Part shown: positions 26,151-44,540 of the stretch, in pieces
Position numbering within the stretch: the first letter of the stretch is position 1
Layout: the number at the start of each line of letters is the position of its first letter
Program-made: the position numbers and the translations under genes
UHGV virus genome: UHGV-0170246
DNA from: a virus
Length of the DNA: 45,982 bases
Strand: one strand, 5' to 3'
Notes under the pieces: model-generated
What the model saw: the letters and a program-made list of their open reading frames with translations, nothing else
Told to the model about the DNA's origin: nothing
Database searches by the model: none

Positions 26151-26741
26151 ATGGCTCTAAAAATCGAATATTTACCAGTCGGTAAGCTGCTCAGATACGC
26201 CAAAAATTCACGGACTCATTCAGATGAGCAAGTTGAACAGTTGGTGAACAGTATCCGTGAGTTCGGTTTCACTAATCCTGTGCTGATCGATGAAAAGAAT
26301 GAACTGATTGCGGGGCATGGGCGGCTTGCAGCAGCCGAAATTCTGGAAATGGATAAAGTTCCAGCGATTCGGTTGAGTAACCTTTCTGAAAAACAGAAGA
26401 AGGCTTACAGGATTGCAGATAACAAGCTGGCCTTAAATGCTGGCTGGGATATGCAGCTTCTGGCCGAAGAAGTCAAAGCGTTAATGGATGATGATTTTGA
26501 TATTGATCTGCTTGGGTTTAATGATGCAGAGCTTGACGAAATGTTAAGCGATGAACAGCCGCAGGAAGAAGACGATAATTCTTCCCCTGTTGTTCAAATT
26601 AAGTACCTGGCTATTGATAAAGAACGTATTCCCGCGACGGATATGGAAATTGCATTGTTGCTGGATGTTTATCGTCAGTACCACGACGCGCATGAAACGC
26701 ATGAGGGATTTGTTCAGTATCTTGCTAATGGTTGCAAGTAA
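26151..26741 (+). CDS. ParB-like nuclease domain protein (paralogue 2)
   Basis: 196 aa; AGHGR motif; paralogue of 22862-23533. Confidence 0.7.
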   Translation: MALKIEYLPVGKLLRYAKNSRTHSDEQVEQLVNSIREFGFTNPVLIDEKNELIAGHGRLAAAEILEMDKVPAIRLSNLSEKQKKAYRIADNKLALNAGWDMQLLAEEVKALMDDDFDIDLLGFNDAELDEMLSDEQPQEEDDNSSPVVQIKYLAIDKERIPATDMEIALLLDVYRQYHDAHETHEGFVQYLANGCK

Positions 26742-27292
26742 TGGCCATCGTCAGTAAGTCAGAGTTTGCCCGCCGAAAAGGTATTTCTCCGGCAATGGTT
26801 ACGAAGCTCTGTCGTTCCGGTCGCATTCCAGTGCTGAAAAGCGGCAAGCTGGATTTTGATAAAGCTAGTGCGGCTTATGAAGCGAGCCGACAGGTTGGTC
26901 GTGAGGTATCTGCTGAAAATGGAAAAAGAGGGCATGGGATATCTTCGGAACAACCAGAGTTACCCGCTGATGATGCCGGATTAGCTGGTGGTACTTCCGG
27001 TGTTGCGGTGCAATTCAACAAGGCTAAGACCGCAGAAAAAATTTATCAGGCAAAGCTGAAACGCCTTGAATTTGAAGAAAAGGAAGGCTCTCTCATCGCT
27101 AAAGATGCGGTCAGGGATGATGCATTTCTGGCAGCTAATGAATTGCGTAGCCGCTTATTTAGTATTGCTCCAAGAGCAGCTCCCCGTTGTGAAGGCAAAA
27201 CAGCCAGGGAGATCGAACGCATTATTGAAGACGAGATTAATTTTGCGCTTCAGGCGCTCCAGGAATCCCGATTTATTAAGCAGGAAGAATAA
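26741..27292 (+). CDS. Terminase small subunit (Nu1-like)
   Basis: ATG overlapping the upstream stop (TAATG); N-terminal HTH-like SKSEFARRKGISPAMVTK; immediately precedes the large subunit. Confidence 0.6.
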   Translation: MAIVSKSEFARRKGISPAMVTKLCRSGRIPVLKSGKLDFDKASAAYEASRQVGREVSAENGKRGHGISSEQPELPADDAGLAGGTSGVAVQFNKAKTAEKIYQAKLKRLEFEEKEGSLIAKDAVRDDAFLAANELRSRLFSIAPRAAPRCEGKTAREIERIIEDEINFALQALQESRFIKQEE

Positions 27293-27297
27293 ACCTC

Positions 27298-29154
27298 ATG
27301 GGCGAAACAGTATGGAGCACCGCTTTTTTCCGTGCGCTTCGCCCTAAATCACGGCTAACTGTTTCCGAATGGGCTGATAAGTATCGTCATGTAGCGCCGG
27401 GAACGTCTCCAGAGCCAGGGCCGTGGCGTACAAGCCGAGTGCCATATTTGCGTGAACCAATGGATGTTATTGGTGACGCTGATACAGAAACAGTAGTGAT
27501 GCAATGTAGCTCGCAAATTGGTAAATCCGAATTACAGCTAAATGTTATGGGTTACTTTGCAGATCAGGAGCCATCTCCTCAGTTGATGATTTATCCAACG
27601 GTAGAGGCGGCTGAGGCTTTTTCAAAAGAGCGTATTGATCCGACGTTCAAATATTCCCCTGGTTTGAAACACAAGCTGCATGAAGGGAAAGAGGGGCGCG
27701 GTGCAGCCAAAAAGTCCAGCACGACTATACGTATGAAGCATTACGCTGGTGGATATATAGCACTTGTTGGTGCTAATTCCCCAGCAGGTCTTGCATCCAG
27801 GCCAATTCGAATACTGTTAGCTGATGAGATTGATCGTTACGGTGTGACGCAGGAGGGCGACCCACTAAAACTAGGTATTCAGCGTACTACCAACTTTCAT
27901 AATCGTAAGAAAGTTTTTGTTTCTACTCCTGTTTTGGAGGAAACGAGCAAAATCCACAAGTGGTTTAAGCTCTCCGATCAGCGTTACTACCATGTTCCTT
28001 GCCCATGTTGTGGCACCATGCAGGTGATGAAATGGTCGCAAGTCAGATGGGATAAGAGCGATTCAGGTGAGGCGTTACCGGAAACGGCCAGATATGAGTG
28101 CTGTGAGTGCGGCGGGATTATGCGCGGATCTGGTAAACCAGACGTTGATTGGTTGGCGAAGGGGGTATGGATAGCTGAACATACTGGAATTAAAGGTATT
28201 GTTGGTTTTCATATTAACAGTCTTTACTCCCCGTGGGTTGCATTGTCAGAGCTGGTTGAAGAGTTTACGGAAGCAACCAGAAACCGCGATAAAAATGGAT
28301 TAATGGAGTTTATTAACCTTAAGCTGGGTGAGCCATGGAAAGAGGATGCTAAAGACGATATCGATCCTGAATACTTGTTGCAACGCAGAATAAGGTTTGA
28401 AGAGTTTTTACCAGATGATGTTTTATTGTTAAGTGCTGGTGTTGACGTACAGGACACGTATTTAGTTTGTGAATTGGTCGGTTGGGGAAAAGGTAAGGAG
28501 TCATGGGGGATAGAATATAAAATATTCCCAGGTGATCCCGCACAAGATGTTGTCTGGAAACAACTTGATGAATACTTACTCCGTAGCTGGTCATTCCGTG
28601 ACGGTAGAAAATTACAGATTTCTTCCGTTTGTATTGACTCTGGTGGGCATTTTACGACAGAGGTATATCGCTTTACTAAGCCGAGAGAATCAAGGCGAAT
28701 ATACTCTATCAGGGGGCGTGGTGGGGTAGGTTTACCATTTATAGGAAAGCCAAGTAATAATAACCGTGTGGGTGCTATGTTGTTTAATTTGGGGGTTGAT
28801 GATGGTAAAGGGACCATCATGGCAAGAATTAAACTACATGATCCTGGTCCTGGTTATATGCATTTCCCATTAGATTCTGACAGAGGATATGATACCGAAT
28901 ACTTTAAAGGATTATTATCAGAGAAAAAAATATTTGAATATAAAAATGGGCAGACAAAAGAAAAGTGGGTGAAAGTCTACGAGCGTAACGAGCCTCTTGA
29001 TTGCCGTAACTATGCAACTGCCGCGATGGAAATTCTGAACCCTAATTTTAACTGGCTTGCCGAACAGGAAATGCGAGGTAATGTGTATGTGCAGAACTCG
29101 TCAGGTATACGTAGAAGACGCCGTAGAGTTATAAGTAAAGGCGTAACCATATAG
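27298..29154 (+). CDS. Terminase large subunit (lambda GpA family)
   Basis: 618 aa; N-terminal GpA-like pattern with P-loop CSSQIGKSE. Confidence 0.85.
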   Translation: MGETVWSTAFFRALRPKSRLTVSEWADKYRHVAPGTSPEPGPWRTSRVPYLREPMDVIGDADTETVVMQCSSQIGKSELQLNVMGYFADQEPSPQLMIYPTVEAAEAFSKERIDPTFKYSPGLKHKLHEGKEGRGAAKKSSTTIRMKHYAGGYIALVGANSPAGLASRPIRILLADEIDRYGVTQEGDPLKLGIQRTTNFHNRKKVFVSTPVLEETSKIHKWFKLSDQRYYHVPCPCCGTMQVMKWSQVRWDKSDSGEALPETARYECCECGGIMRGSGKPDVDWLAKGVWIAEHTGIKGIVGFHINSLYSPWVALSELVEEFTEATRNRDKNGLMEFINLKLGEPWKEDAKDDIDPEYLLQRRIRFEEFLPDDVLLLSAGVDVQDTYLVCELVGWGKGKESWGIEYKIFPGDPAQDVVWKQLDEYLLRSWSFRDGRKLQISSVCIDSGGHFTTEVYRFTKPRESRRIYSIRGRGGVGLPFIGKPSNNNRVGAMLFNLGVDDGKGTIMARIKLHDPGPGYMHFPLDSDRGYDTEYFKGLLSEKKIFEYKNGQTKEKWVKVYERNEPLDCRNYATAAMEILNPNFNWLAEQEMRGNVYVQNSSGIRRRRRRVISKGVTI

Positions 29155-29165
29155 AGGAAATATAA

Positions 29166-29405
29166 ATGAACAATGAAGCATTTTCTCTGACTGAAGCCAG
29201 AGAGATGTTATCTGTCTGGCGGGAAGCATATCGCGCTATTGCTATTGGCGGTCAGTCATATAAATTTGGTACGCGGCAGTTAACTCGTGCGGATTTATCA
29301 GAAGTCAGAAAAGAGATGGATTACTGGCGTAATGAAGTAGAAAGATTATCAGCAGGTATACGCCGAGGCCCACGAATTAAACGAGTGGTGATAAGAGATT
29401 TATGA
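29166..29405 (+). CDS. Head-tail joining protein (lambda gpW-like)
   Basis: 79 aa between terminase and portal, as in lambda. Confidence 0.5.
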   Translation: MNNEAFSLTEAREMLSVWREAYRAIAIGGQSYKFGTRQLTRADLSEVRKEMDYWRNEVERLSAGIRRGPRIKRVVIRDL

Positions 29406-30976
29406 ATATTCTTGATCGAGTTATTGCGCCGTTTTCACCTCAGAGGGCATTAAATCGAGCTTTGGCAAGAAAACGGTTAGAAGCACTTGAAGGTATTAAT
29501 AACCTTGGATATTCACGTCATGGTGCAAGCACTCATAAAAAATCATTAAGGGGTTGGTTTAGTAAAGCTGGTTCTCCTGATGATGATATTGTTAAAAATA
29601 TAGATAAATTGCGTGAGCGTTCTCGTGATCTCTTCATGGGAAACCCGCTATCGGTTGGCGCAATAAAAACTATCAGGACAAACGTTGTTGGTTCCGGTTT
29701 AAAACTAAATGCGAACATTGATGCCGATTTCTTGGGGATGACGCAGGAAGAAGCGCGAGCATGGGAAAAGCATGTTGAGCGTGAGTTTAGATTATGGGCT
29801 GATTCTCCAAATTGTGATGCATCAAGAATGTGTACTTTTGGACAATTGCAATCATTGGTCCAAATATCTGCGTTAACATCTGGCGATATATTTGCTGCGC
29901 TACCAGTTATTAAGCGTAAGGGTGTTATATATGATTTGTGCGTCTATTTAATTGAAGGTGATCGTGTTTGCAATCCAGAGGATCGTTTTATACCAAATCT
30001 TTACGGTGGCGTAGAGGTTGGTGAATTTAGCGAGCCTGTGGCGTACTGGGTTGCAAAACATCACCCAGCCGGGACTTCTGGTTTTGTAACCCGCAAGTGG
30101 GAACGTATTCCCGCATATGGGAGTAAAACAGGAAGAAGAAATATTCTGCATGTCATGCAGGATTTTGAAAGGCCTGGGCAACGCCGTGGCGTTCCTGTCC
30201 TTGCTCCTGTAATTGAAGCATTGAAGCAGTTAGGACGATACACCGATGCTGAATTGGTTGCTGCGGTTGTGTCAGGGATGTTTACTGTCTTTATTAAAAC
30301 AGACGCTCCTGATGGACCAGTCGGTGAATCGGGTATCCCTCAGTACGAGCAGATCGATAACCATGATGATAACACCCAAGAAATGGGGAATGGCTCCATA
30401 GTAAGTTTGGGTGAAGGTGAGTCGATAGATACAGCAAATCCCGGGCGACCAAATACGGCATTTGATGGTTTTGTTGTCGCCATATGCCGTCAAATTGGGG
30501 CTGCTTTAGAACTCCCTTACGAACTCTTGGTAAAGCATTTTACAGCAAGTTATAGCGCTAGCAGGGCCGCATTACTTGAAGCCTGGAAAATGTTCCGTAT
30601 GCGACGTGACTGGATGGTTCAGTCATTTTGCCAACCGATCTATGAGGAATGGTTGGCCGAAGCCGTTGCAAAAGGCCGTGTTATTGCCCCTGGTTTTTTT
30701 TATGGTCCTGAATATCGCGCTGCATGGAGCGGCGCCCAATGGTATGGCCCATCACAAGGCCAATTAGATCCCCTTAAAGAAGTTAAAGCTGCAAAACTGC
30801 GTGTTGAGGAAACATTCTCTACCCGTGAAAAGGAAGCGGCTGAAATGTCAGGTCTTAACTGGGAAGAAACCGCACAAATCTGTGGCAGAGAAGAGAATGC
30901 TCGCCGTGAGTTGGGGCTTATTACACCTCCTGTTTCTGAGGTAAATGAACAAAATATGGAGACTGATGATGCCTAA
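29402..30976 (+). CDS. Portal protein (lambda gpB family)
   Basis: 524 aa; position and length; ATGA overlap with the upstream gene. Confidence 0.8.
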   Translation: MNILDRVIAPFSPQRALNRALARKRLEALEGINNLGYSRHGASTHKKSLRGWFSKAGSPDDDIVKNIDKLRERSRDLFMGNPLSVGAIKTIRTNVVGSGLKLNANIDADFLGMTQEEARAWEKHVEREFRLWADSPNCDASRMCTFGQLQSLVQISALTSGDIFAALPVIKRKGVIYDLCVYLIEGDRVCNPEDRFIPNLYGGVEVGEFSEPVAYWVAKHHPAGTSGFVTRKWERIPAYGSKTGRRNILHVMQDFERPGQRRGVPVLAPVIEALKQLGRYTDAELVAAVVSGMFTVFIKTDAPDGPVGESGIPQYEQIDNHDDNTQEMGNGSIVSLGEGESIDTANPGRPNTAFDGFVVAICRQIGAALELPYELLVKHFTASYSASRAALLEAWKMFRMRRDWMVQSFCQPIYEEWLAEAVAKGRVIAPGFFYGPEYRAAWSGAQWYGPSQGQLDPLKEVKAAKLRVEETFSTREKEAAEMSGLNWEETAQICGREENARRELGLITPPVSEVNEQNMETDDA

Positions 30977-32033
30977 TTGGTGGGAAATAAAAAATAGCAC
31001 GGGTGAAGATGACTCTCCGGCTGAACTTTTAATTTACGGGTATATTGGTGAATTTGATGAGGTTTCTTCTTCTGACATAGTTAATAAATTAAAGGATATT
31101 TCATCAAATACTATCAACGTAAAAATTAATAGTTATGGTGGGTCTGTTTTTACTGCTCAAGCTATTCTTTCATCATTAAAGCGTCATAAGGCGAATATTA
31201 CGATTTATATCGACGGGATTGCTGCATCGGCTGCAACTATTATTGCAATGGCGGGTGATAAAATTATTATCCCATCTAATGCTATGATGATGATCCATAA
31301 TCCGTGGACATTTGCTGCTGGCGATGCGGATGAATTGCGTGATATTGCTGAGATGATGGATAAGATACGCAATAGTATTTTATCTGTATATAAGGAGAAA
31401 ACAGGGCTTTCTGAGGATAAATTAATTGAACTAATGGATCAGGAAACATGGCTAAATGCAGAAGAGGCTGTAGAGCTTGGATTTGCTGACGAAGTTGAAA
31501 AACCAATGCGCTTATCCGCTTCTATAAAGGAAGGGATGCTTTCGCTTAATGGAATAACTTTTGAAGCATCAAGGTTTTCAAAATTACCTGATTCACTCGC
31601 AAAGTTGCCGCAAAATAAAAATGAGTTATCTACTGAATCAAATGAACAAAATGAGGACGATATTGTGACTCTTGATGAATTAAAAAATAAATATCCAGAA
31701 TTATACAATCAGGTTTTTAATGCTGGTAAAGACGAGGGCGTTAAATCAGAACGCGAGCGCATTGAAACAATCGAGAATAGCGTGATTCCTGGTCATGACG
31801 ACCTGGTTAAGAATGCAAAATTCAAAACAGGAGTTTCTGCGGCTGAACTTGCTTTGGAAATTATGAATGCAGAGCGAGCGCGTAACAAAAACTTTCTTAA
31901 TCAACGGCAAGAAGACGCAAGTGAGGTGAATGATTCAGTTGATGTTAATCAACCAGAAAACAACGGCAACAAACAGGCTGAAGCAGTAAAAAATGTTATT
32001 GGGTCAGTATTTAAAAACCGCGATAAAAATTAA
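30966..32033 (+). CDS. Prohead protease, ClpP/S49-like, with C-terminal scaffold-like acidic region
   Basis: ClpP-like core (IDGIAASAATIIAMAGDK, MMMIHNPW) then a Glu/Asn-rich helical tail; start 30966 or 30969. Confidence 0.8.
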   Translation: MMPNWWEIKNSTGEDDSPAELLIYGYIGEFDEVSSSDIVNKLKDISSNTINVKINSYGGSVFTAQAILSSLKRHKANITIYIDGIAASAATIIAMAGDKIIIPSNAMMMIHNPWTFAAGDADELRDIAEMMDKIRNSILSVYKEKTGLSEDKLIELMDQETWLNAEEAVELGFADEVEKPMRLSASIKEGMLSLNGITFEASRFSKLPDSLAKLPQNKNELSTESNEQNEDDIVTLDELKNKYPELYNQVFNAGKDEGVKSERERIETIENSVIPGHDDLVKNAKFKTGVSAAELALEIMNAERARNKNFLNQRQEDASEVNDSVDVNQPENNGNKQAEAVKNVIGSVFKNRDKN

Positions 32034-32042
32034 GGTGAGTTT

Positions 32043-32426
32043 ATGCGAGAGTCTTTTTCATTTGAACCAGATAATCTGATTATTTCTGGTGGTATGCCAG
32101 CAATTCCAACAAGTATTAAACTTGCCAGCGGTAAAGTAAAACGGGGTGAGTTACTTGCTTTTGTCAGTATTGATCAGACAACAAATGTTGTCACTGTGGC
32201 GCCAATAAATCTCTCTGGTGAAGGGGAGGCAAAAGAACCGTATTGTATCGCTCAACACAATATTGATGCGACTGATTCAGCGCAAGTCGGAACAGCATGG
32301 CTGACCGGAATGTTCAATGCACATGCGGTTATCCTTCCTGAATCAGCAAAAGTTGCCGATGTATATCTGGCTTGCCGGAAGGTTGGAATATTCCTTAATA
32401 CCGCACAACAAAATCCATCTGCATAA
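32043..32426 (+). CDS. Head decoration protein (lambda gpD-like)
   Basis: 127 aa between protease and major capsid gene. Confidence 0.5.
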   Translation: MRESFSFEPDNLIISGGMPAIPTSIKLASGKVKRGELLAFVSIDQTTNVVTVAPINLSGEGEAKEPYCIAQHNIDATDSAQVGTAWLTGMFNAHAVILPESAKVADVYLACRKVGIFLNTAQQNPSA

Positions 32427-32446
32427 TATAAAGAGGTCGTATTTTT

Positions 32447-34709: not shown

Positions 34710-35000
34710 ATGGCTAATAAGAAAAGTAGTAAAGAAGATATAGAAAAGAAGGAAGATGTTGCTCAAACATTTGTATATATAGGACCAACAATCCCTCAAC
34801 TCTCAATTTTGAAGCATAAACTATTTAAGAATGGTTTATCTCCAGAGTGTGAAAAATTAATATCACATATTCCTGGTGCAAAGTGTTTGTTTGTGGCAAC
34901 CAGTGATTTTGCAGATGCAGAAAAAAGACTTTCTGATAAAACCAGTGTCGAGTATGTAATGTACTCTAGAGTTTCTTCTTCTATCATGGAGATTAAATAA
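34710..35000 (+). CDS. Hypothetical protein
   Basis: 96-aa ORF directly upstream of the sheath gene. Confidence 0.3.
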   Translation: MANKKSSKEDIEKKEDVAQTFVYIGPTIPQLSILKHKLFKNGLSPECEKLISHIPGAKCLFVATSDFADAEKRLSDKTSVEYVMYSRVSSSIMEIK

Positions 35001-37010: not shown

Positions 37011-37292
37011 ATGGAAACCGTTAAATTAAGTAAAGAATATCGTTTTGAAGACTTTGAGCCGGTGACTGAACTCAACCTTGATTTAGACAACCTAAAAGGC
37101 AGTGATATTTTAGAGGTATCGGACTTACTGCAATCTCAAGGGCATGTTTCAGTTCAAACATCACTTGATAATAAAGTCCATGCAGCCTTGGCTGCTCGCT
37201 GTATTGGCCGTCCAATAGAGTATCTGAATGGATTGCCAGCGAAAGACTTTATTAAAGTTTGTCAAAAGGTACAGAATTTTTTGCTCTCGTAG
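37011..37292 (+). CDS. Tail assembly chaperone (P2 gpE-like), frame-0 product
   Basis: 93 aa between tube and tape-measure genes; ends just after a slippery heptamer. Confidence 0.6.
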   Translation: METVKLSKEYRFEDFEPVTELNLDLDNLKGSDILEVSDLLQSQGHVSVQTSLDNKVHAALAARCIGRPIEYLNGLPAKDFIKVCQKVQNFLLS

Positions 37293-37441
37293 GTTTTGAT
37301 GAGCAAAAACCTATTGATAAGCAAATAATGAGGGCCGCGAGTTCTCTATCTCAATCATCTCAATCAACACCTATATCCTACTGGCTTTCGCTTCGGTTGA
37401 GGCGAATCGTCGCATGGATTGATGTGTTTAATGAGGATTAA
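37259..37441 (+). CDS. Frameshift extension of the tail chaperone (E'-like), made only as a fusion with 37011-37283
   Basis: -1 frame relative to the chaperone; continues 52 codons past the slip site. Confidence 0.5.
   Translation: MSKGTEFFALVGFDEQKPIDKQIMRAASSLSQSSQSTPISYWLSLRLRRIVAWIDVFNED
37277..37283 (+). other. Candidate -1 programmed ribosomal frameshift site, slippery heptamer T-TTT-TTG
   Basis: In frame 0 the heptamer is aaT TTT TTG; the overlapping ORF 37259-37441 is in the -1 frame. Confidence 0.6.
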
Positions 37442-37446: not shown

Positions 37447-40239
37447 ATGGCCAGCAATAAGAACTTTAAGCTGGCTTTTGAAATTGGCGGCAAAGTTGCC
37501 GCCTCTCTCCCCAAAAGTTTTACTACAGCTAATCAGGCTGTTGCTAAATTAAATGCCGAGCTTGCTGGATTAACGAAAGAACATGGGGAAATTCAAAAGC
37601 TACAATCTGTAAAAGTAAAGGTTGGACAGACTGCCCTCGAATATCATAAAGCTGCCGCTCGCGTTGAAGAGTTACAGAAGCAAATAAAAAACACGGCCAA
37701 TCCAACCAGAGCGATGCTTCGTGACTTTGAGAAGGCAAAAACACATTCATCAAATTTACGAGCATCACTACGTTCTCAGCGTGAAGAACTGGCCGCTTTA
37801 AAGTCTGCGTATCAGGGAGCTGATACATCTGCCAGAGCTTTGGCCTCAAGAGAGAAAGAGCTTAAAGCAAGCATTGATCGTAATCGTGAGGCTCAGGCCC
37901 GTAGCGTTGAGCAGGTTAACCGCTACAGAACGGCTTTGGCTTTAGCCAGAGCAAATGTTCAGCAAGTGAAAAAACAGCAGGAGGAACTTAACCGGGCATT
38001 AGAAAAACAACGTATTGATAAAATTAACAGTTATAAAAATGCGTTGGCTGAAGCACGGAAAAATGTTCTTGCAGTAAAACGTGCTCAGGAGGAGTTAAAC
38101 CGCGCGTTGGAAAGGCAGCGTGAATTGAAGCGAGAGCATCTTGGTGAGGCAAAGAGTCAACTTGTAAGGTCAGGATTACAAACTGGTGCTGTAGCGGCTG
38201 GTGCATTTGCTGCTGCTAACAATGCAGCAAATTTCAATCGTGAAAACAAAATGATTGGTCTTACGGCAGATATGAAGCCGGAAGAAGTTCAGGCGATGGG
38301 GCAGGCGATGCTTGTTACCGGAACGGCCACCAACCAGTTTGCATCTGATATTCAGGCCGCTCAGGGTTTTCTCGTCGCTGCTGGGCAGGATTATAAAGAG
38401 GCTCAGGCGAATCTACTAACTATTGGGCGAACAGCTACAGCTACTGGCTCTGATATCCTCGATGTCTCGAAAGCATCATTTACATTAAGTGACTCATTGA
38501 AGATTGATCCATCTCAAATGAAGTCTGCAATGGGGATTCTGGTTCAGGCAGGGAAAGAGGGAAACTTTGAATTTAAAGATATGGCCAAAAATCTTCCTGT
38601 GCTTGGTGCTCAGTTCCAGGCATTAAAAATGGGAGGTAAAGAAGCCGCCGCGACGATGGGGGCAGCTTTGCAGATAGCTCGCAAAGGTGCTGCAACTTCG
38701 GATGAGGCTGCTAATAATATGAACAACTTTTTGGCAAAAATACTTTCCCCTGAAACACTAAAAAAAGCAAAGAAAAATTTCGGTGTAGATTTATATAAAA
38801 TTGTCACAACAGCGCAGAAAAAAGGGAAGAATCCATTCGAAGCTGCAATGCATTCTGTCATGAAAATGACTAAGAACGGAGATCAGAAGTTACTTGGTGA
38901 ACTATTTGGCGATATGCAGGTTCAGAACTTTGTTCGTCCGATGATTCAAAACTGGAAGGAATACCAGAGAATCAAAGCAACATCTCTTGGAGCTGGAAGT
39001 GCTGTTATTGACCGCGATTTTGCCAACATAACGAAAGATAATGCGGAGCGATTGAAACAATTACGTATTCAGGCTAGCAATGCATCATTAAGTTTTGGTC
39101 AGGCCTTGCAACCTGCTTTGAATGCCGCGCTTAGTGTTTTGGTTCCGCTGATTACAAAAATTAGTGAATTTGTAGCTAACAACCCCAATTTTGTGTCTCA
39201 GATAGTGATGGCGGCAGGTGCGTTTCTAACCATGAAAAGTGTGGTTATAGCGTGTAGGGTAGCTATGCTGGCTTTATCTGTAGCGACAAAGCTAACACCC
39301 TTCGGGTGGATTCAGATGGCTATATCTGCGCTGGTTGCCGCAGGAATATTGCTCTATCAGAACTGGGATAAGATCAGAGATTATGCTGTCAGAGTTTGGC
39401 CTTCTGTTAAGGAATATACAGTTAAATCGTTTGAGACTATAAAAAACTTTATCTTAAACTTTGATCTCAATGGATGGATTATATCTATATTTGGTAAAGC
39501 ATGGGATTATCTTTCCAACATAAACTGGAGTTCGGCAGGAGTAAGAATTTACAGTACATTAATTAGTGCTTTTAAATGGATGTCTCCGCTTCCGTTCTTA
39601 ATTAAAGCATTTAAACTTACAACAAATTACCTTTCTGGCATTAACTGGAGCGAAACAGGAAAGAAAATCATAGATACACTGGTATCTGTTTTTATGCGTT
39701 TTTCGCCAGTTGGACTCTTTATAAGAGCATTCCAATCTGTAACGGCTTATTTATCTGGAATAAACTGGAGTGAGTCAGGTGCAAAAATAATTGAGACGTT
39801 AATCATTGGGATAAAATCAAAAGCAAATGCTTTAATTAATGAAGTGAAAGGCGTTTTTTCTTCTGTACGTGAGTATTTACCGTTCTCTGACGCGAAAAAA
39901 GGTCCATTCTCACAGCTAACAAAGTCAGGTGGTGCAATAATGACTACTCTGGCATCAGGTGTTAGCAGGAATAACAGCTTACAGAATGCAATAGCAACCA
40001 AGTTCGGGCAATCAAATTTATCACCTCACGGGATATCTGCCGCCGGGACTTCTGGACCTCGCCAGAACGTTAATGCTGTGACTGGTGGAATAACCTATTC
40101 ACCTGTAATCAATCTTCCGGCTGGTTCACCAAAGGAAACTGAGGCGGCAGCTAAAAGAGCATTAGATGCGGGATATTCTGATTTTGAGAAGAAATTGAGT
40201 GCTCATATGTTCCAACAACGGAGATTAAGTTTTGGATGA
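37447..40239 (+). CDS. Tail tape measure protein
   Basis: 930 aa; coiled-coil N-terminal region, central hydrophobic segments, W-containing repeats (GINWSE x3). Confidence 0.85.
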   Translation: MASNKNFKLAFEIGGKVAASLPKSFTTANQAVAKLNAELAGLTKEHGEIQKLQSVKVKVGQTALEYHKAAARVEELQKQIKNTANPTRAMLRDFEKAKTHSSNLRASLRSQREELAALKSAYQGADTSARALASREKELKASIDRNREAQARSVEQVNRYRTALALARANVQQVKKQQEELNRALEKQRIDKINSYKNALAEARKNVLAVKRAQEELNRALERQRELKREHLGEAKSQLVRSGLQTGAVAAGAFAAANNAANFNRENKMIGLTADMKPEEVQAMGQAMLVTGTATNQFASDIQAAQGFLVAAGQDYKEAQANLLTIGRTATATGSDILDVSKASFTLSDSLKIDPSQMKSAMGILVQAGKEGNFEFKDMAKNLPVLGAQFQALKMGGKEAAATMGAALQIARKGAATSDEAANNMNNFLAKILSPETLKKAKKNFGVDLYKIVTTAQKKGKNPFEAAMHSVMKMTKNGDQKLLGELFGDMQVQNFVRPMIQNWKEYQRIKATSLGAGSAVIDRDFANITKDNAERLKQLRIQASNASLSFGQALQPALNAALSVLVPLITKISEFVANNPNFVSQIVMAAGAFLTMKSVVIACRVAMLALSVATKLTPFGWIQMAISALVAAGILLYQNWDKIRDYAVRVWPSVKEYTVKSFETIKNFILNFDLNGWIISIFGKAWDYLSNINWSSAGVRIYSTLISAFKWMSPLPFLIKAFKLTTNYLSGINWSETGKKIIDTLVSVFMRFSPVGLFIRAFQSVTAYLSGINWSESGAKIIETLIIGIKSKANALINEVKGVFSSVREYLPFSDAKKGPFSQLTKSGGAIMTTLASGVSRNNSLQNAIATKFGQSNLSPHGISAAGTSGPRQNVNAVTGGITYSPVINLPAGSPKETEAAAKRALDAGYSDFEKKLSAHMFQQRRLSFG

Positions 40240-40450
40240 TTATAGAACGGTTCAAGGGGACTCATGGGATAGTATCGCGTTAAAGTTGTATGGTAATGAG
40301 TACCTGTCTTATCTTCTTATTGATGCTAATACTGAGCACCGCTTTACGGTGCTTTTTTCTGCGGGAATTATTCTTAAAGTTCCTGATGCTCCGGTTATGC
40401 CAATATCAGTAAACAATTTGCCTCCGTGGAGACGCAATAGTGTTACGTAA
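40232..40450 (+). CDS. Tail protein X-like (LysM-like)
   Basis: 72 aa; LysM-like N-terminus; position after the tape measure gene. Confidence 0.5.
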   Translation: MDDYRTVQGDSWDSIALKLYGNEYLSYLLIDANTEHRFTVLFSAGIILKVPDAPVMPISVNNLPPWRRNSVT

Positions 40451-41441
40451 AACGCTTTTTGATGTTATATATCAGAATGTAAATATTACCGCTCATATGT
40501 CACCTGATGTTTTGTCAATGTCTTATACAGATAATGAAGATGGTCAGGTCGATGATATTTCTATTATATTAAAAAATGATGATGGGAAATGGTCTGGAGA
40601 CTGGACACCTAAAAAGGGTGATTTTATTGATTTGAGCTTTAAGCCTATAAATCAAATCGTCCTTGAGTGCGGGAAATTCCAGGTAGATGGCATAACTTGC
40701 TCTGGACCACCTTCTGTTGTTGAGGTGACTGCTGTTTCTGTTCCTGTTTCATCAGGCATTAGACGTGATTTAAAAAGTAATGCATGGGAAAAAACAACTC
40801 TTAAAGATATAGCAACCTCTATAGCTAAATTAGCTAACCTTGAACTGTTGTTTCTTATTGATGGTGATAGTAATCCATATTATGCGCGTGAAGATCAAAT
40901 GGAGGAAAGCGATTTAAAATTTCTCCATCGACTATGCCAGGATGAAGGGTTGTCGTTAAAGGTCACTGATAGCCAATTAATAATATTTGCTCAAGAGATG
41001 TTTGAGCAAAAAGATCCTATCGCTACGCTTACGTTAGGTATTGATGAGATAATCAGATATAGCTTTAGCACACAATCTACAGATTTGTATAAAAGTTGCA
41101 CGTGCAAATATCGCGTACCTAAAAAAAGAAAGTCGCTTTCGTATACTTGGGTAGATCCATCCGTAGAAGAAGGGTCGAATCTTAAGATAAGAAAACTGGT
41201 AGCTAATTTAGATGAAGCAAAACGTAAGGCAAAGGCTGCTTTGCGGCTTAAAAATAGATATCAAAATACAGGATCTTTAGTATTGGTTGGAGACACCAGA
41301 TTGGTAGCTGGTGTAACTATAAATCTGGACGGATTCGGTTCATTTTCTGGAAAATATCTTATATCGAAAGCTGTGCATTCAATTGGGGCTAGTGGTTATA
41401 CCACCTCGATTGATGTCCGAAGAGTAATTAATGGGTATTAA
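40440..41441 (+). CDS. Tail protein, P2 gpD-like (late control D / baseplate hub)
   Basis: 333 aa; position between X-like and V-like genes. Confidence 0.55.
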   Translation: MLRKTLFDVIYQNVNITAHMSPDVLSMSYTDNEDGQVDDISIILKNDDGKWSGDWTPKKGDFIDLSFKPINQIVLECGKFQVDGITCSGPPSVVEVTAVSVPVSSGIRRDLKSNAWEKTTLKDIATSIAKLANLELLFLIDGDSNPYYAREDQMEESDLKFLHRLCQDEGLSLKVTDSQLIIFAQEMFEQKDPIATLTLGIDEIIRYSFSTQSTDLYKSCTCKYRVPKKRKSLSYTWVDPSVEEGSNLKIRKLVANLDEAKRKAKAALRLKNRYQNTGSLVLVGDTRLVAGVTINLDGFGSFSGKYLISKAVHSIGASGYTTSIDVRRVINGY

Positions 41442-41443
41442 TT

Positions 41444-42064
41444 ATGAATGATTTAGAAACATTATTACGTCAGACTATAAGAGTTGGCGTTGTTTCTGAT
41501 ATTGATGATGGTGATGTTACAGCAAGAGTTACTTTCGATGATCAGGATAACGTCACTTCGGCAAAGTTATCAGTTATTGTGAAAAATACGGATAAGAATG
41601 CTGATTACTGGATGCCAGATATTGGTGAGCAAGTTTTGTGTATCTTTCATCCCGCAGGGCCGCAACAAGGTTTTATTCTTGGTAGTTTTTATGATGAAAC
41701 ACAGAAGCCGCCATCTAATACTGTTAATAAACGCGTCATTAGATTTAATAACGGAACTCGTATTGAGGTAGACAGAGAATCTAATTTACTCCTTGTTGAT
41801 GCTGTCGGAGATGTAACCGTTAAGGCTACAGGAACCGTAACTATTGATGCTCCAGAAACCATCATTACCGGAAATGCTACAGTTGAAGGATTACTAACCT
41901 TCAAAGGTGGAATGAAAGGATCTTCTGCTGGAGGTGTTGCAGCTACAATTTCTGGGGATGTTAAGGTTGTTGGTGGTGATATAGATGTTGATGGGATTAA
42001 ATCTAAAGGCCACCATCACACGGCTCAGGGGGAATACGCTCCGACAACGGAGGCTCAGGCATGA
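41444..42064 (+). CDS. Baseplate assembly protein V-like (spike)
   Basis: 206 aa; N-terminal OB-fold-like region and Gly/Val-rich beta C-terminus. Confidence 0.6.
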   Translation: MNDLETLLRQTIRVGVVSDIDDGDVTARVTFDDQDNVTSAKLSVIVKNTDKNADYWMPDIGEQVLCIFHPAGPQQGFILGSFYDETQKPPSNTVNKRVIRFNNGTRIEVDRESNLLLVDAVGDVTVKATGTVTIDAPETIITGNATVEGLLTFKGGMKGSSAGGVAATISGDVKVVGGDIDVDGIKSKGHHHTAQGEYAPTTEAQA

Positions 42065-42528
42065 TTGTGGGTATGCTTGGTACAATGCCTTTTGTTGCCT
42101 CATCAATAGTGGTGAATACGTTCAACAATTTTAAAAGGACGTCAAAGCGTCGTGTAGCGCGCCATGATGTTATTGGGCTTAAACCTGTTCTGGAGGATAT
42201 AGGTCCAGATCTGGATGAAGTTAGTTTTAATATGCGGTTGGATACAACACTTGGCATTGTTCCATTGGCTGCGCTTTCATTACTTAGGACAATGCAATCA
42301 ATTCAGGAAGTAAATCCTGTTGTAATTGGTATTCAGTATTTTGGTAATTTTATAATTACAGATATAGAGGAATCATGGACTTATTTCGGTCCAACTGGGA
42401 ATCCACGAGTGATTATCGTCGGCATTAAATTACAGGAAGTCGGACAGACCTCTCTGAAAGAAGCATTAGTTGATATTGCTGGCAATATAGAGTCAAAAAC
42501 TAGAAGTGCGTTAGGTAAATTATTATGA
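42061..42528 (+). CDS. Hypothetical baseplate-associated protein
   Basis: 155 aa between V-like and W-like genes. Confidence 0.35.
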   Translation: MIVGMLGTMPFVASSIVVNTFNNFKRTSKRRVARHDVIGLKPVLEDIGPDLDEVSFNMRLDTTLGIVPLAALSLLRTMQSIQEVNPVVIGIQYFGNFIITDIEESWTYFGPTGNPRVIIVGIKLQEVGQTSLKEALVDIAGNIESKTRSALGKLL

Positions 42529-42845
42529 ATAATACGTTTACCATATCATCACCTTCTTACTCGATTGATTGGTCACCCAAAACAGTTGTAGAAGAAGTTT
42601 TGCAAAATGTCTCTACTATTATTAATACTCAGATTGGCACTGTACCATATGCCAGAAAATTAGGAGTTAATTCAAGTCTTGTTGATAGCCCTAGCCCAAT
42701 TTTTATTGCTACAGCAACACGAGAAATAATTCAAAAAATTAGTGAGTTTGAGCCTAGAGCGATTATCCATTCTGTTACTTTTGAAAGAACGGACGTTTCT
42801 GATGGTTTTATTAGGCCAAAACTTGTGATAGGAGTTAGAGAATGA
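42525..42845 (+). CDS. Baseplate wedge protein, GPW/gp25-like
   Basis: 106 aa; EEVLQNVSTIINTQIGTVPYARKLG fits the gp25/GPW pattern. Confidence 0.65.
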   Translation: MNNTFTISSPSYSIDWSPKTVVEEVLQNVSTIINTQIGTVPYARKLGVNSSLVDSPSPIFIATATREIIQKISEFEPRAIIHSVTFERTDVSDGFIRPKLVIGVRE

Positions 42846-43966
42846 CGTTGCCGCGCGGTGGTTTGCCAGATATTACTTTCGCAGATTCTAACCCGACTGA
42901 TATAACAACTCGTTCAATCAGGGCTTTTGAGAGTATAACAGGTGAAACATTAGCACCTGCTGATCCACGTAGATTATTCATCTTGTCATTGTGTGAGATT
43001 ATTATACAGCAAAGAAAAGCTATCGATTTTTCTGCAAAACAAAACCTTCTTACATATGGTGGGGGTGAATATCTCGACCATATAGGCTATCTGACGGATA
43101 CGCCTAGGCTGGAAGCTCAATCTGCCTTGACTACATTTGAGTTTAATCTGTCAACAAAATTATCGGGGATATATACAATACCTGCTGGCACTCAAATTTC
43201 AACTGGAAATAGTGTTATTTTCCAAACAGATGTTTTGTTGGAAATACCAGCTGGGAAAACAGTTGGTACAGTCTCAGGATATGCTGTTATACCTGGCTTA
43301 TCGGGGAATGGATTTTTACCTGGGCAAATAAACGAGTTGGTGACTCCGTTGCCGTATGTTTCCAGCGTAAGGAATCTAACAACATCTAATTCTGGTGCTG
43401 ATACAGAGTCAGATGATAATTATGCTGAAAGAATAAAACTGTCGCCGGAAAAACTGTCTACAGCAGGGCCGGAGGATTCTTATAAATATTGGACAAGAAC
43501 AGCCAATCAGAATATAAAAGATGTGAATGTATATACACCATCGCCCGGAACTGTAGAAATCCGTTCTTTGTTAGAGAACGGGGATATACCTTCTGATGAA
43601 CTATTAGAGCAGATAAATAGCGTTCTCTCTGCAACTAATATTCGACCATTCACAGATAAAGTTCTTGTTAAGAAACCAGAGAGCATTGAATACGATATAA
43701 TAATTAAATACTGGATTAACTCATCGGACAAAAACAGAACAACGTTAATTCAAAGTGAGGTTGAGAAAGCTCTTGATGAGTATAAACAATGGCAACGTTC
43801 GGTTATGGGAAGAGATATAAATCCAGATGAAATTATTCAACGTTTAAAAAATGCCGGGGCTAAAAGATTAGAAATATCAAGTCCTGTATTTACTGTAGTT
43901 GGAGAGACGCAGGTCGCCAGAGAGAGAAATATAAATTGCCAGTATGCGGGGTTAGAGGATGGCTGA
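42842..43966 (+). CDS. Baseplate protein J-like
   Basis: 374 aa; position and size match P2 gpJ. Confidence 0.7.
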   Translation: MTLPRGGLPDITFADSNPTDITTRSIRAFESITGETLAPADPRRLFILSLCEIIIQQRKAIDFSAKQNLLTYGGGEYLDHIGYLTDTPRLEAQSALTTFEFNLSTKLSGIYTIPAGTQISTGNSVIFQTDVLLEIPAGKTVGTVSGYAVIPGLSGNGFLPGQINELVTPLPYVSSVRNLTTSNSGADTESDDNYAERIKLSPEKLSTAGPEDSYKYWTRTANQNIKDVNVYTPSPGTVEIRSLLENGDIPSDELLEQINSVLSATNIRPFTDKVLVKKPESIEYDIIIKYWINSSDKNRTTLIQSEVEKALDEYKQWQRSVMGRDINPDEIIQRLKNAGAKRLEISSPVFTVVGETQVARERNINCQYAGLEDG

Positions 43967-44540
43967 TATCTTTAATGTTAGCTTGTTGGATGTTTTACCT
44001 CCTAACTTAGCTAGAGATCCCAACGTGATAGCTATGTCGAAAGCTATTGATGATGAACTACAAGCAATTAACAATTTAATATATAAGACAGAAATATATA
44101 GCGTTGTTGATAACCTGGACTCAGTTGTTCTCGATCATTTAGCTTGGCAATGGAATGCTGATACATGGAGGGATAGTTGGCCTGTATCGTTAAAGCGTTC
44201 TGTTTTTAAATCAATAATACGAACAAAGCGAATAAAGGGTACAAGGGCAGCGGTTGACGATGTAGTAAATAGCTTGGGTGGAGAGGTAAACATAACAGAA
44301 TGGTTTGAAACATCACCACCTGGCGAACCATATACAGCCTCAATTGTTGCTTCGATTAACTCTTTTGATGGTGCCGTTCCTTCGAAAGAGATGTTGGAAG
44401 ATACGTTAAGAAGTATCAAGAGCGCAAAGTCGGCAAGAACATTATTTACATTTTCGCAAGCAGCCAATGTTTCTGGTGGTGTCGGTATTGTTGGTGCTTG
44501 TCAGCCTGTGTCTTATGTACGATTAATTGGCGAGTGCTAA
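43959..44540 (+). CDS. Tail protein I-like
   Basis: 193 aa; follows the J-like gene with overlap. Confidence 0.65.
   Translation: MADIFNVSLLDVLPPNLARDPNVIAMSKAIDDELQAINNLIYKTEIYSVVDNLDSVVLDHLAWQWNADTWRDSWPVSLKRSVFKSIIRTKRIKGTRAAVDDVVNSLGGEVNITEWFETSPPGEPYTASIVASINSFDGAVPSKEMLEDTLRSIKSAKSARTLFTFSQAANVSGGVGIVGACQPVSYVRLIGEC

Follow-up and report, generated by a model that had tools for sequence, protein, structure and literature searches.

The Vibrio phage X29 belongs to the myoviruses; its head measures 64 nm and its tail 142 nm, and its genome has defined ends (PMC5690320). It possesses integrases and no RepA/ParA and is thus integrative rather than plasmidial. The record of the Acinetobacter phage HFM1 describes 11-nt cohesive ends mapped with PhageTerm and structural proteins with proteomic support. 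In phage lambda, the packaging and head genes are ordered Nu1, A, W, B, C/Nu3, D and E and precede a siphoviral tail, while in phage P2 a V W J I H G operon is followed by FI FII E E' T U D, and X lies far upstream among head and lysis genes. Here we analyzed a stretch of 45,982 nucleotides (hereafter, the window) from the virus genome UHGV-0170246, with gene calls based on open reading frames, Pfam and PHROGs profile matches, and BLAST against lambda and P2. Positions 26741–44540 hold the complete set of virion (late) genes of an E. coli phage that has been sequenced before and is maintained as a plasmid. At the protein-family level, its particle genes comprise a lambda-family packaging and head set and a P2-family contractile tail, a combination that is old and common to many phages, so that the finding is ordinary and already known. 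Our overall reading, to which we assign a probability of roughly 85%, is that the block is the late operon of a temperate myovirus kept as a ~48 kb phage-plasmid, and that head and tail form one long-established, co-inherited module that is AT-shifted as a whole. Its established part comprises the gene families, the gene order, the near-identity to deposited phages and plasmids, the synteny with the relatives and the statistics on composition.

The region is 98.6–98.7% identical over 100% of its length to the Escherichia phages vB_EcoM-613R2 and vB_EcoM-473R2 and the Yersinia phages vB_YpM_39, vB_YpM_41 and vB_YpM_44, and up to 99.1% identical to E. coli plasmids of about 47–51 kb (most 47–49 kb). 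Matching places in E. coli genomes were plasmid records in 94 of 95 cases. These identities to phages and to ~48 kb plasmids show that the window is a phage-plasmid, and the annotation of one such plasmid, p48 (CP023368), includes RepA, ParA, a toxin-antitoxin pair and an XRE repressor. The five phages, p48 and the ATCC 25922 plasmid (CP009073) represent the same element, with genes and gene order alike. The protease, decoration and capsid proteins of these elements are 96% identical to those of the window, as opposed to 98–100% elsewhere, and their fibre and early genes are variable; in vB_YpM_39, the early region is covered only to ~62% (megablast) or 90% (blastn).

The features of the block and its flanks are as follows.

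25594–26150, plus strand: non-coding cos/late-control region (putative cos function)
26151–26741, plus strand: ParB_N-domain (ParB-like nuclease) gene, first after cos (Pfam ParB_N, E 4e-8; phrog_620, E 1e-74)
26741–27292, plus strand: small terminase TerS, Nu1 family (phrog_57, E 1.4e-41)
27298–29154, plus strand: large terminase TerL, lambda gpA family (GpA_ATPase, E 7e-76; GpA_nuclease, E 1e-84)
29166–29405, plus strand: head-tail adaptor at the position of lambda W (DUF6148, E 9e-16; phrog_118 'head-tail adaptor')
29402–30976, plus strand: portal, lambda family (Phage_portal_2, E 7e-101; 27% identity to lambda B)
30969–32033, plus strand: head maturation protease, ClpP (S14) type (CLP_protease, E 5e-32, residues 33–177 of 354)
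32043–32426, plus strand: head decoration protein, lambda gpD family (phrog_49, E 4e-25)
32447–33490, plus strand: major capsid protein, lambda gpE family (Phage_cap_E, E 2e-53)
33491–35000, plus strand: four neck/connector genes of 130, 114, 161 and 96 aa (phrog_5541, phrog_2551, phrog_2581, phrog_4089)
35000–36463, plus strand: tail sheath, P2 FI/R-pyocin family (phrog_23, E 9e-96)
36480–37001, plus strand: tail tube, P2 FII family (Phage_tube, E 3.5e-44; 28% identity to P2 FII)
37011–37441, plus strand: tail assembly chaperone pair, short form ending at 37292 (Phage_TAC_7; phrog_3140)
37447–40239, plus strand: tape measure protein, 930 aa (PhageMin_Tail, E 1e-20; phrog_28, E 4e-109)
40232–40450, plus strand: gpX-like small baseplate/hub protein (phrog_46, E 2e-17)
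40440–41441, plus strand: gpD-like baseplate hub (Phage_GPD, E 2e-9; phrog_52, E 1e-110; 28% identity to P2 D)
41444–42064, plus strand: gpV-like spike (Phage_base_V, Phage_spike; 26% identity to P2 V over 207 aa)
42061–42528, plus strand: gpU-like tail protein (Phage_P2_GpU, PF06995, E 2e-22; phrog_76)
42525–42845, plus strand: gpW/gp25-like baseplate wedge (phrog_43, E 4e-20)
42842–43966, plus strand: gpJ-like baseplate wedge (Baseplate_J, E 2e-54; 32% identity to P2 J)
43959–44540, plus strand: gpI-like baseplate protein (Tail_P2_I, E 1e-26; 31% identity to P2 I)
44571–45982, plus strand: tail fibre gene H, cut off by the window end (Phage_fiber_2 repeats, E 1e-58)

All gene classes that a sequence-only reading had named for 26741–44540 were found on the plus strand by open reading frames, Pfam and PHROGs, with one correction of extent: the fibre gene H, which it had placed inside this interval, begins past its end. 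Its assignment of the packaging and head genes to lambda families was borne out, since TerS, TerL, portal, decoration and capsid proteins share Pfam or PHROG families with lambda. TerL and lambda A share 28% identity over 599 aa, and the major capsid protein matches the solved lambda capsid structure 7vi9 (E 4.5e-15). Lambda Nu1 likewise falls in phrog_57 (E 1e-76) and lambda D in phrog_49, although TerS and the decoration protein have no BLAST similarity to their lambda counterparts; TerS has no above-threshold Pfam match, and the HDPD match of the decoration protein falls under the threshold (19.5 vs 29.1 bits). The gene order is that of lambda, as had been claimed, but two of the genes differ in kind. 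The adaptor gene was rejected as a lambda W because lambda gpW belongs to phrog_75. The protease was likewise rejected as a lambda C type: it has no BLAST match to lambda C, an S49 enzyme (phrog_53) with a nested Nu3. The C-terminal extension of the ClpP-type protease may serve as a scaffold.

The four neck genes went unmentioned in the earlier reading and have no Pfam or PDB sequence matches. Profile matches suggest a head closure (Hc1-like) and a tail completion (Tc1-like) protein among them, plus two genes without an assigned role; the phrog_2551 gene also has a weak match to phrog_82 (Hc1). The second, third and fourth genes have homologues at matching positions in X29 and others, and the neck genes of phage Toutatis are annotated as Hc1/Ne1/Tc1.

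The sheath, tube, chaperone and tape measure genes follow the head as had been described, with matching families. The sheath shares phrog_23 with P2 FI and matches the pyocin sheath 3j9q (E 5e-15), with no Pfam match at E < 0.01. A −1 frameshift at T_TTT_TTG (37277–37283) would extend the chaperone to 37441 (~143 aa); the reading frame of the extension, 37259–37441, is a −1 frame with a match to phrog_30074 (E 2e-37), and the TTTTTTG heptamer is the same in P2 E/E' and X29. The gpX- and gpW/gp25-like proteins fall in the PHROGs of P2 X and W, while their Pfam matches stay under the cut-off (Phage_tail_X, 21.1 vs 22 bits; GPW_gp25). The N-terminal part of the fibre is 70% identical to P2 H at the amino acid level over 295 aa. 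The tail genes thus run sheath, tube, chaperone, tape measure, X, D, V, U, W, J, I, H. The gene classes X/D/V/W/J/I/H had been reported to follow P2 order; the classes are present, but the order is Mu-like and includes gpU between V and W, which had been missed.

Upstream of the block, a cohesive-end site probably lies near 25737–25760. The cos/late-control region contains CTTTTAACC-like motifs in both orientations, the junction formed by joining the two X29 genome ends aligns to the window at ~25748/25749, and the vB_YpM_39 record begins at window position 25737. Packaging by cohesive ends, as in lambda, is expected. The ParB-like gene occupies the same position in X29 (59% aa identity) and in the Salmonella, Yersinia and Serratia relatives.

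On these gene families, a pathway of particle assembly can be proposed. The Nu1-family TerS and the gpA-family TerL would recognize and cut cos just upstream of the block (~25.74–25.76 kb), and the terminase would pump DNA through the lambda-family portal into a gpE-type procapsid, presumably matured by the ClpP-type protease and stabilized by the gpD-type decoration protein. The adaptor, head-closure and tail-completion proteins would then link the filled head to a separately built contractile tail. This tail is predicted to consist of P2-family parts, namely the sheath, the tube, the chaperone pair made by −1 frameshifting at TTTTTTG and the tape measure, with X, D, V and U as hub and spike, W, J and I as wedges, and the fibre, all encoded in Mu-like order. 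The head-plus-tail block represents an 'X29-type' module found in phages of several bacterial phyla.

The families split cleanly, with a head set like that of lambda and a tail set like that of P2, which speaks for the earlier reading of head and tail as separate modules joined together. Such a recent chimera would have arisen by recombination of a lambdoid head with a P2- or Mu-like tail in this lineage, with a junction between the capsid and sheath genes. Mosaicism is general among phage genomes, and patches 90–97% identical to Stx, lambdoid and P1 phages occur in the backbone of this element. However, the identity to lambda is only 24–28% in the head and that to P2 only 26–32% in the tail, and the gene order is not that of P2. 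The same order of roughly 23 genes, in which X follows the tape measure and U separates V from W, is found in X29 (Vibrio), HFM1 (Acinetobacter), Lily (Paenibacillus), Toutatis (Faecalibacterium), Funu1 (Fusobacterium), EalM-137 and JD-Fnp3, and Lagaffe has a similar gene order; overall, a colinear head-neck-tail block is present in at least 9 distant phages across three phyla, among phages of Gammaproteobacteria, Firmicutes and Fusobacteria. The identities of TerL and sheath to those of the window co-vary among 18 lineages (Spearman 0.89, p = 1e-6), and the pairing of head and tail is kept in relatives at intermediate distance, a Salmonella plasmid (LN890526; TerL 88%, sheath 85%) and an Anoxybacillus plasmid (TerL 47.5%, sheath 44.7%). 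Head and tail genes are also alike in third-position GC (GC3; 0.34 vs 0.31, p = 0.37), and the strongest change point within the virion region lies at 28171, inside TerL and away from the head-tail junction. Such uniformity, together with congruent phylogenies, is what the sequence-only reading had itself named as speaking against a modular origin. We found no sign of a joining of separate head and tail modules in the lineage of the window, and the recent-chimera explanation, which we regard as highly improbable, is close to refuted. The shared order, the co-varying identities and the identity of only 24–32% to lambda and P2 indicate that the head-tail pairing is ancient and not a recent join.

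The comparison of terminase and sheath phylogenies proposed by that reading gave broad, though not fine, congruence. The head and tail distance matrices are correlated (Mantel r = 0.55, p = 0.03), and both trees recover a clade of the window, X29 and HFM1. However, the neighbour-joining trees have only 1 of 6 internal splits in common, at saturated distances (0.5–0.75), so homologous modules may have been exchanged within the family; inside the gamma clade, the head tree pairs the window with X29, whereas the tail tree pairs X29 with HFM1. Roseobacter phages of ~30 kb with a TerL of the window's type gave no sheath match, which means that heads and tails do reassort at greater depth.

The claim that head and tail genes are more AT-rich than the plasmid and early regions held (GC3 ~0.33 vs 0.48). 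The GC content is 0.470 for 1–26150 and 0.413 for 26151–44540, and GC3 is 0.484 in the early/plasmid genes, 0.340 in the head, 0.319 in the neck and 0.313 in the tail (early vs virion genes, Mann-Whitney p = 8e-11). A single change point in GC fits best at 25760 (|z| = 12.4; maximum of 300 block shuffles, 7.8). Composition thus breaks at the cos region (~25.75 kb) and a second time between gpI and the fibre gene, in which GC is back to 0.46, so any unit acquired would be the whole late block. The shift extends over both head and tail and is confined to the Escherichia lineage, whose block is AT-shifted relative to both its backbone and its closest relatives. The most probable reason is that the late region, as a unit, has had a recent history of its own.

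Import of the whole block, from cos to gpI and possibly from ~20 kb, into an Escherichia/Salmonella-type backbone from a sister phage equilibrated in a host of ~40% GC is a possible cause, to which we give somewhat less than an even chance. It would account for the GC3 gap and both breaks, and it fits the uniform composition of the Salmonella relative (0.473 vs 0.480) and the span of head-gene GC3, from 0.34 in the window and 0.36 in HFM1 to 0.48 in Salmonella, 0.505 in Yersinia, 0.51 in X29 and 0.53 in Serratia. The virion GC3 of the relatives presumably tracks host genome GC. Third positions in the Escherichia lineage also show a directional, net strong-to-weak excess (112 vs 65, p = 5e-4). 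On the other hand, no donor was found: the nearest outside TerL proteins are 88–89% (Salmonella), then 77% and 73% identical, and the TerL search returned nothing between 89% and 99%. The virion genes are no more diverged from the Salmonella relative than the backbone (78% vs 70% aa identity), the Salmonella lineage has itself shifted towards GC (58 vs 102), which makes up about half of the GC3 gap, and the genes at 20–25.6 kb are also AT-shifted relative to Salmonella, which leaves the boundary unclean.

AT enrichment of the late operon in place, specific to this region and caused by putative selection for silencing of AT-rich late genes by host nucleoid proteins in the plasmid state or putative tuning by the element's own tRNA(CAU), appears unlikely. 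Synonymous sites are indeed the most affected, with GC3 ~0.12 lower than in Salmonella in nearly all virion genes, and ATA accounts for 31% of the Ile codons of the virion module, compared with 20% for both the backbone and the Salmonella module. The tRNA(CAU), annotated by PGAP as tRNA-Ile, occurs only in the Escherichia lineage, but it is equally explicable as a consequence of importing an AT-rich block. Moreover, we know of no mutational mechanism that hits only half of a 48 kb replicon.

Taken together, the co-inherited module that we favor can be set against the known systems. The head genes of the window precede a contractile tail, unlike those of lambda, and differ from the P2 head (gpQ, P, O, N, M, L). 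All twelve tail families of P2 (FI, FII, E/E', T, U, D, X, V, W, J, I, H) are present; sheath, X, W and U share PHROGs with P2, and no homologue of gpR or gpS was detected in the window. The tail genes of the window make up one array and are ordered differently, whereas in P2 they occupy two operons, X excepted. Mu is colinear with the window through sheath, tube, chaperone, tape measure, hub, spike, wedges, fibre and fibre-assembly gene, and both have an invertible segment with a Gin/Hin-type invertase after the latter gene. Sequence similarity to Mu is nevertheless marginal (only gp45 and gp47, E 0.002–0.007): the Mu sheath L belongs to phrog_165, gp43 (N) stands where the window has gpX, and a separate gpU gene is lacking. 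The Wolbachia phage WO, which is more distant, also combines a head of the lambda family (a gpA terminase with 37% identity, a gene at the gpW position, portal, decoration and capsid) with a P2-family contractile tail, but in a P2 arrangement: V-W-J-I directly follows the head, and sheath-tube-G/GT-T-U-X-D forms a separate block on the other strand. X29 differs from the window in a gpZ/Ne1-like neck gene, the lack of a tRNA and a higher structural GC (0.48 vs 0.41). Its virion module, like those of phi 2, Rostov 7 and vB_VpaM_XM1, is colinear with that of the window from the ParB-like gene to gpI, with the same chaperone heptamer, placement of X and U and a similar cos junction, and its TerL and sheath are 63% and 54% identical, respectively.

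The virion region of the window (26741–44540) contains 22 genes, which lie on the plus strand in an array without interruption, as revealed by ORF calling combined with Pfam and PHROG scans.

Genes of the virion region and its immediate flanks (window coordinates)
26151–26741: ParB_N-domain gene, directly before the small terminase gene
26741–27292, plus strand: small terminase (TerS; phrog_57)
27298–29154, plus strand: large terminase (TerL), gpA-type (PF05876 ATPase domain, E ~7e-76; PF20454 endonuclease domain, E 1e-84)
29166–29405, plus strand: small adaptor (DUF6148, phrog_118)
29402–30976, plus strand: portal, lambda-family (PF05136, E 7e-101)
30969–32033, plus strand: protease, ClpP-type (CLP_protease, S14, E 5e-32)
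32043–32426, plus strand: decoration protein (phrog_49)
32447–33490, plus strand: capsid protein, gpE-type (PF03864, E 2e-53)
33491–35000, plus strand: four small neck genes (PHROGs only)
35000–36463, plus strand: sheath (phrog_23)
36480–37001, plus strand: tube, FII-type (PF04985, E 3.5e-44)
37011–37292, plus strand: tail chaperone; a −1 frame extension reaches 37441
37447–40239, plus strand: tape measure, 930 aa (PhageMin_Tail)
40232–44540, plus strand: X, D, V, U, W, J and I (Pfam/PHROG matches for all seven)
from 44571: fibre gene, outside the virion region and incomplete at the window end (45982)

A 198-aa antisense ORF within the TerL gene (28224–28820, minus strand) was rejected as spurious, being of low complexity and closed in the Salmonella, Yersinia, Serratia and X29 orthologues. 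The first gene past the capsid gene (33491–33883) is lineage-specific, and the protease gene, with a GC content of 0.369, ranks among the most AT-rich of the long genes. The protease, decoration and capsid proteins (30969–33490) are 96% identical to those of Yersinia phage vB_YpM_39, compared with 98–100% for the remaining virion proteins, and this divergent patch inside the head module suggests small-scale recombination between close relatives.

The sequence-only reading regarded this region as a mosaic virion, in which a lambda-like packaging and head module is joined to a P2/Mu-like contractile tail. To follow the pairing of head and tail across relatives, we ran TerL and sheath each by tblastn against about 50,700 phage records. 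Both searches returned the same phages with nearly identical ranking, and the identities of TerL and sheath to the window were correlated (Spearman 0.89, p = 1e-6, n = 18 lineages); two plasmids fell on the same trend line.

Identity of TerL and sheath to the window in relatives
Vibrio X29, phi 2, Rostov 7, XM1: TerL 62–65%, sheath 50–54%
Acinetobacter HFM1: TerL 46%, sheath 46%
Exiguobacterium EalM-137: TerL 43%, sheath 44%
Paenibacillus Lily, phiERICV: TerL 42%, sheath 44%
Clostridium Saumur: TerL 42%, sheath 41.5%
Faecalibacterium Toutatis: TerL 45%, sheath 38.5%
Fusobacterium Funu1: TerL 38%, sheath 40%
Salmonella plasmid LN890526: TerL 88%, sheath 85%
Anoxybacillus plasmid: TerL 47.5%, sheath 44.7%

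Homologues of the virion proteins occurred in window order in seven of the nine relatives retrieved (tblastn), in agreement with the relatives' annotations, and X29 matched 21 of the 23 window genes from ParB to gpI. The window contains the complete colinear block typical of X29, Lilyvirus, Toutatisvirus and others, which consists of TerS, gpA-type TerL, the DUF6148 adaptor, portal, ClpP protease, decoration protein, gpE-type capsid protein, neck and the tail genes from sheath to I. Toutatis and its relatives have been assigned to the Virfam class 'Myoviridae type 1, cluster 6' (PMC5883640). The recurrent synteny and the co-varying identities indicate that the pairing is old and conserved and does not result from a recent join between lambda and P2.

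A comparison of terminase and sheath phylogenies, which had been proposed as a check, gave a partial answer. Distance matrices and neighbour-joining trees were prepared for concatenated head (TerL, portal, protease and capsid) and tail (sheath, tube, D and J) proteins. The matrices were correlated (Mantel r = 0.55, p = 0.03), and both trees grouped the window with X29 and HFM1, but only one of six splits was in common and the distances were saturated. Given this saturation, which blurs fine congruence, the conclusions draw on the Mantel test together with synteny and rank correlation. Homologous modules may have been exchanged within the X29-type family, and Roseobacter phages of about 30 kb that carry this TerL gave no sheath match by tblastn, so that reassortment of head and tail does happen at greater depth. 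Taken together, the virion block of this phage-plasmid appears to be one module that has been conserved for a long time, and its head-tail junction does not appear to be a mosaic boundary; the word mosaic holds only loosely, in that the head and tail families are named after different model phages.

The relatives differ from one another in local gene content. A gpZ/Ne1-like neck protein is encoded between Hc1 and Tc1 in X29, HFM1, Lily, Toutatis, Funu1, JD-Fnp3 and WO; its gene is missing in the enterobacterial members, namely the window (33883–34709; compare 9168–9734 of the relative record L006) and its Salmonella and Yersinia relatives, and in these three the 114-aa and 161-aa neck genes overlap or abut. 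A ParD/ParE toxin-antitoxin pair is inserted between the chaperone and tape measure genes of a Yersinia prophage (L020, 21094–21613), and a gene for an 878-aa tailspike-like protein between X and D of Acinetobacter HFM1 (L008, 14771–17407).

Across its entire length, the virion region shows 98.6–98.7% identity to Escherichia phages vB_EcoM-613R2/vB_EcoM-473R2 and Yersinia phages vB_YpM_39/41/44. Of 5426 complete E. coli genomes, 72 (about 1.3%) carry the element, ATCC 25922 among them, and 94 of the 95 places at which the element was found in E. coli genomes are plasmid records, with sizes of about 47–51 kb (mostly 47–49 kb). PLSDB holds 63 plasmids of this kind, all typed as non-mobilizable, among them the 48,488-bp carrier plasmid of ATCC 25922. 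In the RefSeq annotation of p48, an E. coli plasmid of ~48 kb (CP023368) that is 99.1% identical, RepA, ParA, a RelE/HTH toxin-antitoxin pair and an XRE repressor stand next to phage genes. The counterparts in the window are as follows.

Plasmid-type genes of the window (window coordinates)
855–1847: RepA
3304–3956: RelE/HTH toxin-antitoxin pair
8569–9237: ParA
9840–10496: XRE-type repressor

These genes and the plasmid records bear out the mention of a plasmid region in the sequence-only reading, and, as judged from database records and their annotation, the window would represent most of a ~48 kb phage-plasmid. Its identification as a 'pSLy3-type' phage-plasmid was rejected, since pSLy3 is assigned in the literature to the SSU5 supergroup, which comprises siphovirus types of about 85–125 kb. 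An intact ORF6N-Rha fusion of 381 aa, which is antirepressor-like, is encoded at 5646–6791 on the minus strand; the corresponding locus of p48 is broken up, with Rha as a gene of its own and ORF6N as a pseudogene. In the publication found to mention 613R2, its nature as a plasmid prophage is unrecognised, and the literature search found nothing on the combination of a lambda-like head and a P2-like tail or on the vB_YpM_39 records. The ~48 kb myovirus family, widely distributed yet hardly described, falls outside the ten phage-plasmid types handled by tyPPing (PMC12977533), which may interest those working on phage-plasmids.

The base composition of the window changes at the edge of the late region and not at the head-tail junction. 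GC content was 0.470 over 1–26150 versus 0.413 over 26151–44540, and the gene-wise third-position GC (GC3) was 0.484 in early/plasmid genes (n = 42) compared with 0.340, 0.319 and 0.313 in head, neck and tail genes, respectively. Early and virion genes differed significantly (p = 8e-11), as the sequence-only reading had noticed by eye. A difference between head and tail, in contrast, was not detected (p = 0.37), and the best split inside 26741–44540 was located at 28171, in the TerL gene and away from the head-tail boundary. The best change point of the whole window was 25760 (|z| = 12.4; block-shuffle maximum 7.8), which coincides with the probable cos site, and GC content returned to 0.46 in the fibre gene. 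The compositional break is real and sets the entire late region apart from the early/plasmid backbone, with one boundary at the probable cos site and the other at the fibre gene.

The probable cos site lies in a 557-bp AT-rich non-coding region (25594–26150). A CTTTTAACC-like motif occurs there five to six times, in both orientations, and its copies are candidate binding sites for terminase or a late activator. The site was placed with the aid of X29, the genome ends of which have been defined (PMC5690320): its joined right and left ends, aligned by hand, correspond to window position ~25748/9, and the vB_YpM_39 record begins at 25737. When the termini of X29 and HFM1 were compared with the cos region by BLAST, the matches were short only. 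HFM1 has an 11-nt 5' cohesive end, and by analogy with HFM1 and X29 the window phage would be packaged by the cohesive-end (cos) mode. Three ParB_N-domain proteins are encoded in the late region (22862–23533, 23478–24857 and 26151–26741), one of which is fused to a methyltransferase domain, and they may act as nucleases, in packaging or in modification; the position of the ParB_N gene between cos and the small terminase gene is conserved in X29 and the Salmonella, Yersinia and Serratia relatives. A 239-aa gene just 5' of cos (24874–25593), whose position is kept in the Salmonella, Serratia and Yersinia relatives, matched phrog_1924 'minor tail protein' (E 6e-97) and no Pfam family; the label is doubtful because the gene sits outside the virion array.

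The shift toward AT is specific to the Escherichia lineage. The Salmonella phage-plasmid, whose amino acid identity to the window is 78% for the virion module and 70% for the backbone, has a uniform composition (0.473 vs 0.480). The GC3 of head genes is 0.34 in the window, and the corresponding values in relatives are 0.48 (Salmonella), 0.505 (Yersinia prophage), 0.53 (Serratia) and 0.51 (X29). With Yersinia and Serratia serving as outgroups to polarise third-position changes, 112 strong-to-weak and 65 weak-to-strong changes were assigned to the window lineage (p = 5e-4), whereas the trend was reversed in the Salmonella lineage (58 and 102, respectively). In the virion module, 31% of the Ile codons are ATA, as against 20% in both the backbone and the Salmonella module. 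A tRNA gene with the anticodon CAU (19729–19804), which ARAGORN assigned to Met and PGAP, for the identical gene in p48, to Ile, is confined to the Escherichia lineage and missing in the Salmonella relative and X29.

Import of the whole late block from a relative with an AT-rich host is the explanation that we favour, at somewhat less than even odds, over AT enrichment of the late operon in place, which we consider unlikely. No donor emerged: a collection of 5.8 billion proteins had no TerL between 89% and 99% identity, and a search of genome contigs gave just three TerL matches, at 57–58% and from gut MAGs, which did not help. A further-reaching reading, given a probability of roughly 0.3, is that the Escherichia late operon came wholly from a relative whose host had ~40% GC, with tRNA-Ile(CAU) kept or acquired and decoding the ATA-rich late genes, or else was driven toward AT in place, for example so as to be silenced in the plasmid state. 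Either origin, if true, would offer, in one small replicon, a clear example from nature of compositional decoupling at the level of a module, compensated by a tRNA. The unusually AT-rich late operon and the lineage-specific tRNA(CAU) may also be of interest to phage-plasmid workers.

To define the relationship to the model phages, the lambda, P2 and Mu proteins were compared directly with those of the window by BLAST, and both sides were assigned to PHROGs. Identity to the lambda counterparts is 28% for TerL (A), 27% for the portal (B) and 24% for the capsid protein (E), and the capsid protein matched the lambda capsid structure (PDB 7vi9, E 4.5e-15). TerS and lambda Nu1 share the best match phrog_57 (E 1.4e-41 and 1.3e-76, respectively); their relation is remote, because TerS had no Pfam match above the cut-off and no BLAST match to Nu1. 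The decoration protein and lambda D both belong to phrog_49, and the Pfam HDPD match of the former is under the cut-off. Of the lambda-like labels Nu1/A/W/portal/protease/decoration/capsid given earlier, those of these five genes hold and two fail. Lambda W is phrog_75, whereas the DUF6148/phrog_118 gene at its position is a positional analogue only; lambda C (phrog_53) is an S49 protease with a nested Nu3 scaffold, whereas the window protease is an S14 ClpP with no BLAST match to lambda C and a Peptidase_S49 match under the cut-off. The head is accordingly of the lambda family with the adaptor and protease replaced, and BLAST found no match in the window to the P2 head proteins Q, P, O, N, M and L.

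The tail, judged by sequence, belongs to the P2 family, as had been claimed. Identity to the P2 counterparts is 26–32% for tube, D, V, U, J and I and, over its C-terminal 144 aa only, for the sheath; the window sheath, X, W and U fall into PHROGs 23, 46, 43 and 76, respectively, as do FI, X, W and U of P2, and the N-terminal part of the fibre is 70% identical to P2 H. A Pfam sheath match was not found for the window sheath. PDB sequence searches, which matched the sheath to the pyocin sheath only (E 5e-15) and the neck proteins to nothing, found no solved virion structure of the close relative 'XM1'. The frameshifted chaperone is well supported at the sequence level: a slippery heptamer T_TTT_TTG lies at 37277–37283 (0-frame AAT TTT TTG), the −1 frame is open through 37441, and P2 E/E' uses the same TTTTTTG heptamer, which X29 also carries; a −1 frameshift would yield an E/E'-type chaperone pair.

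The sequence-only reading was largely right, and several of its details were mislabelled. These include the P2 gene order: P2 arranges V-W-J-I-H-G and then FI-FII-E-E'-T-U-D in separate operons, with X far upstream, whereas the window has a single array of FI, FII, E, T, X, D, V, U, W, J, I and H, in which gpX follows the tape measure. All members of its X/D/V/W/J/I/H list are present, but gpU between V and W was overlooked and the fibre gene starts past the end given to the region. The element carries little weight as a discovery; the gains are the corrected annotation (Mu-like order, gpU, ClpP protease and non-gpW adaptor), the finding that head and tail do not meet at a mosaic boundary, and the placing of the true compositional boundary at the cos site and the fibre gene. 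The window array is colinear with the tail genes of Mu, and the likeness is in order only: Mu L (sheath) is phrog_165 versus phrog_23 for the window sheath, Mu gp45 and gp47 gave marginal matches, and Mu L, M and N (DNA circularisation protein) gave no BLAST match in the window. A Hin/Gin-type invertase gene lies at the window start (129–683) and the cut-off fibre gene at its end (44571–45982); circular relatives have between these two an invertible fibre/fibre-assembly segment resembling the Mu G segment. Wolbachia phage WO pairs a lambda head with a P2 tail in the true P2 gene arrangement. The element has already been deposited many times in public databases, and the pairing of a head of the lambda family with a contractile tail of the P2 family is an established virion design with a wide distribution.
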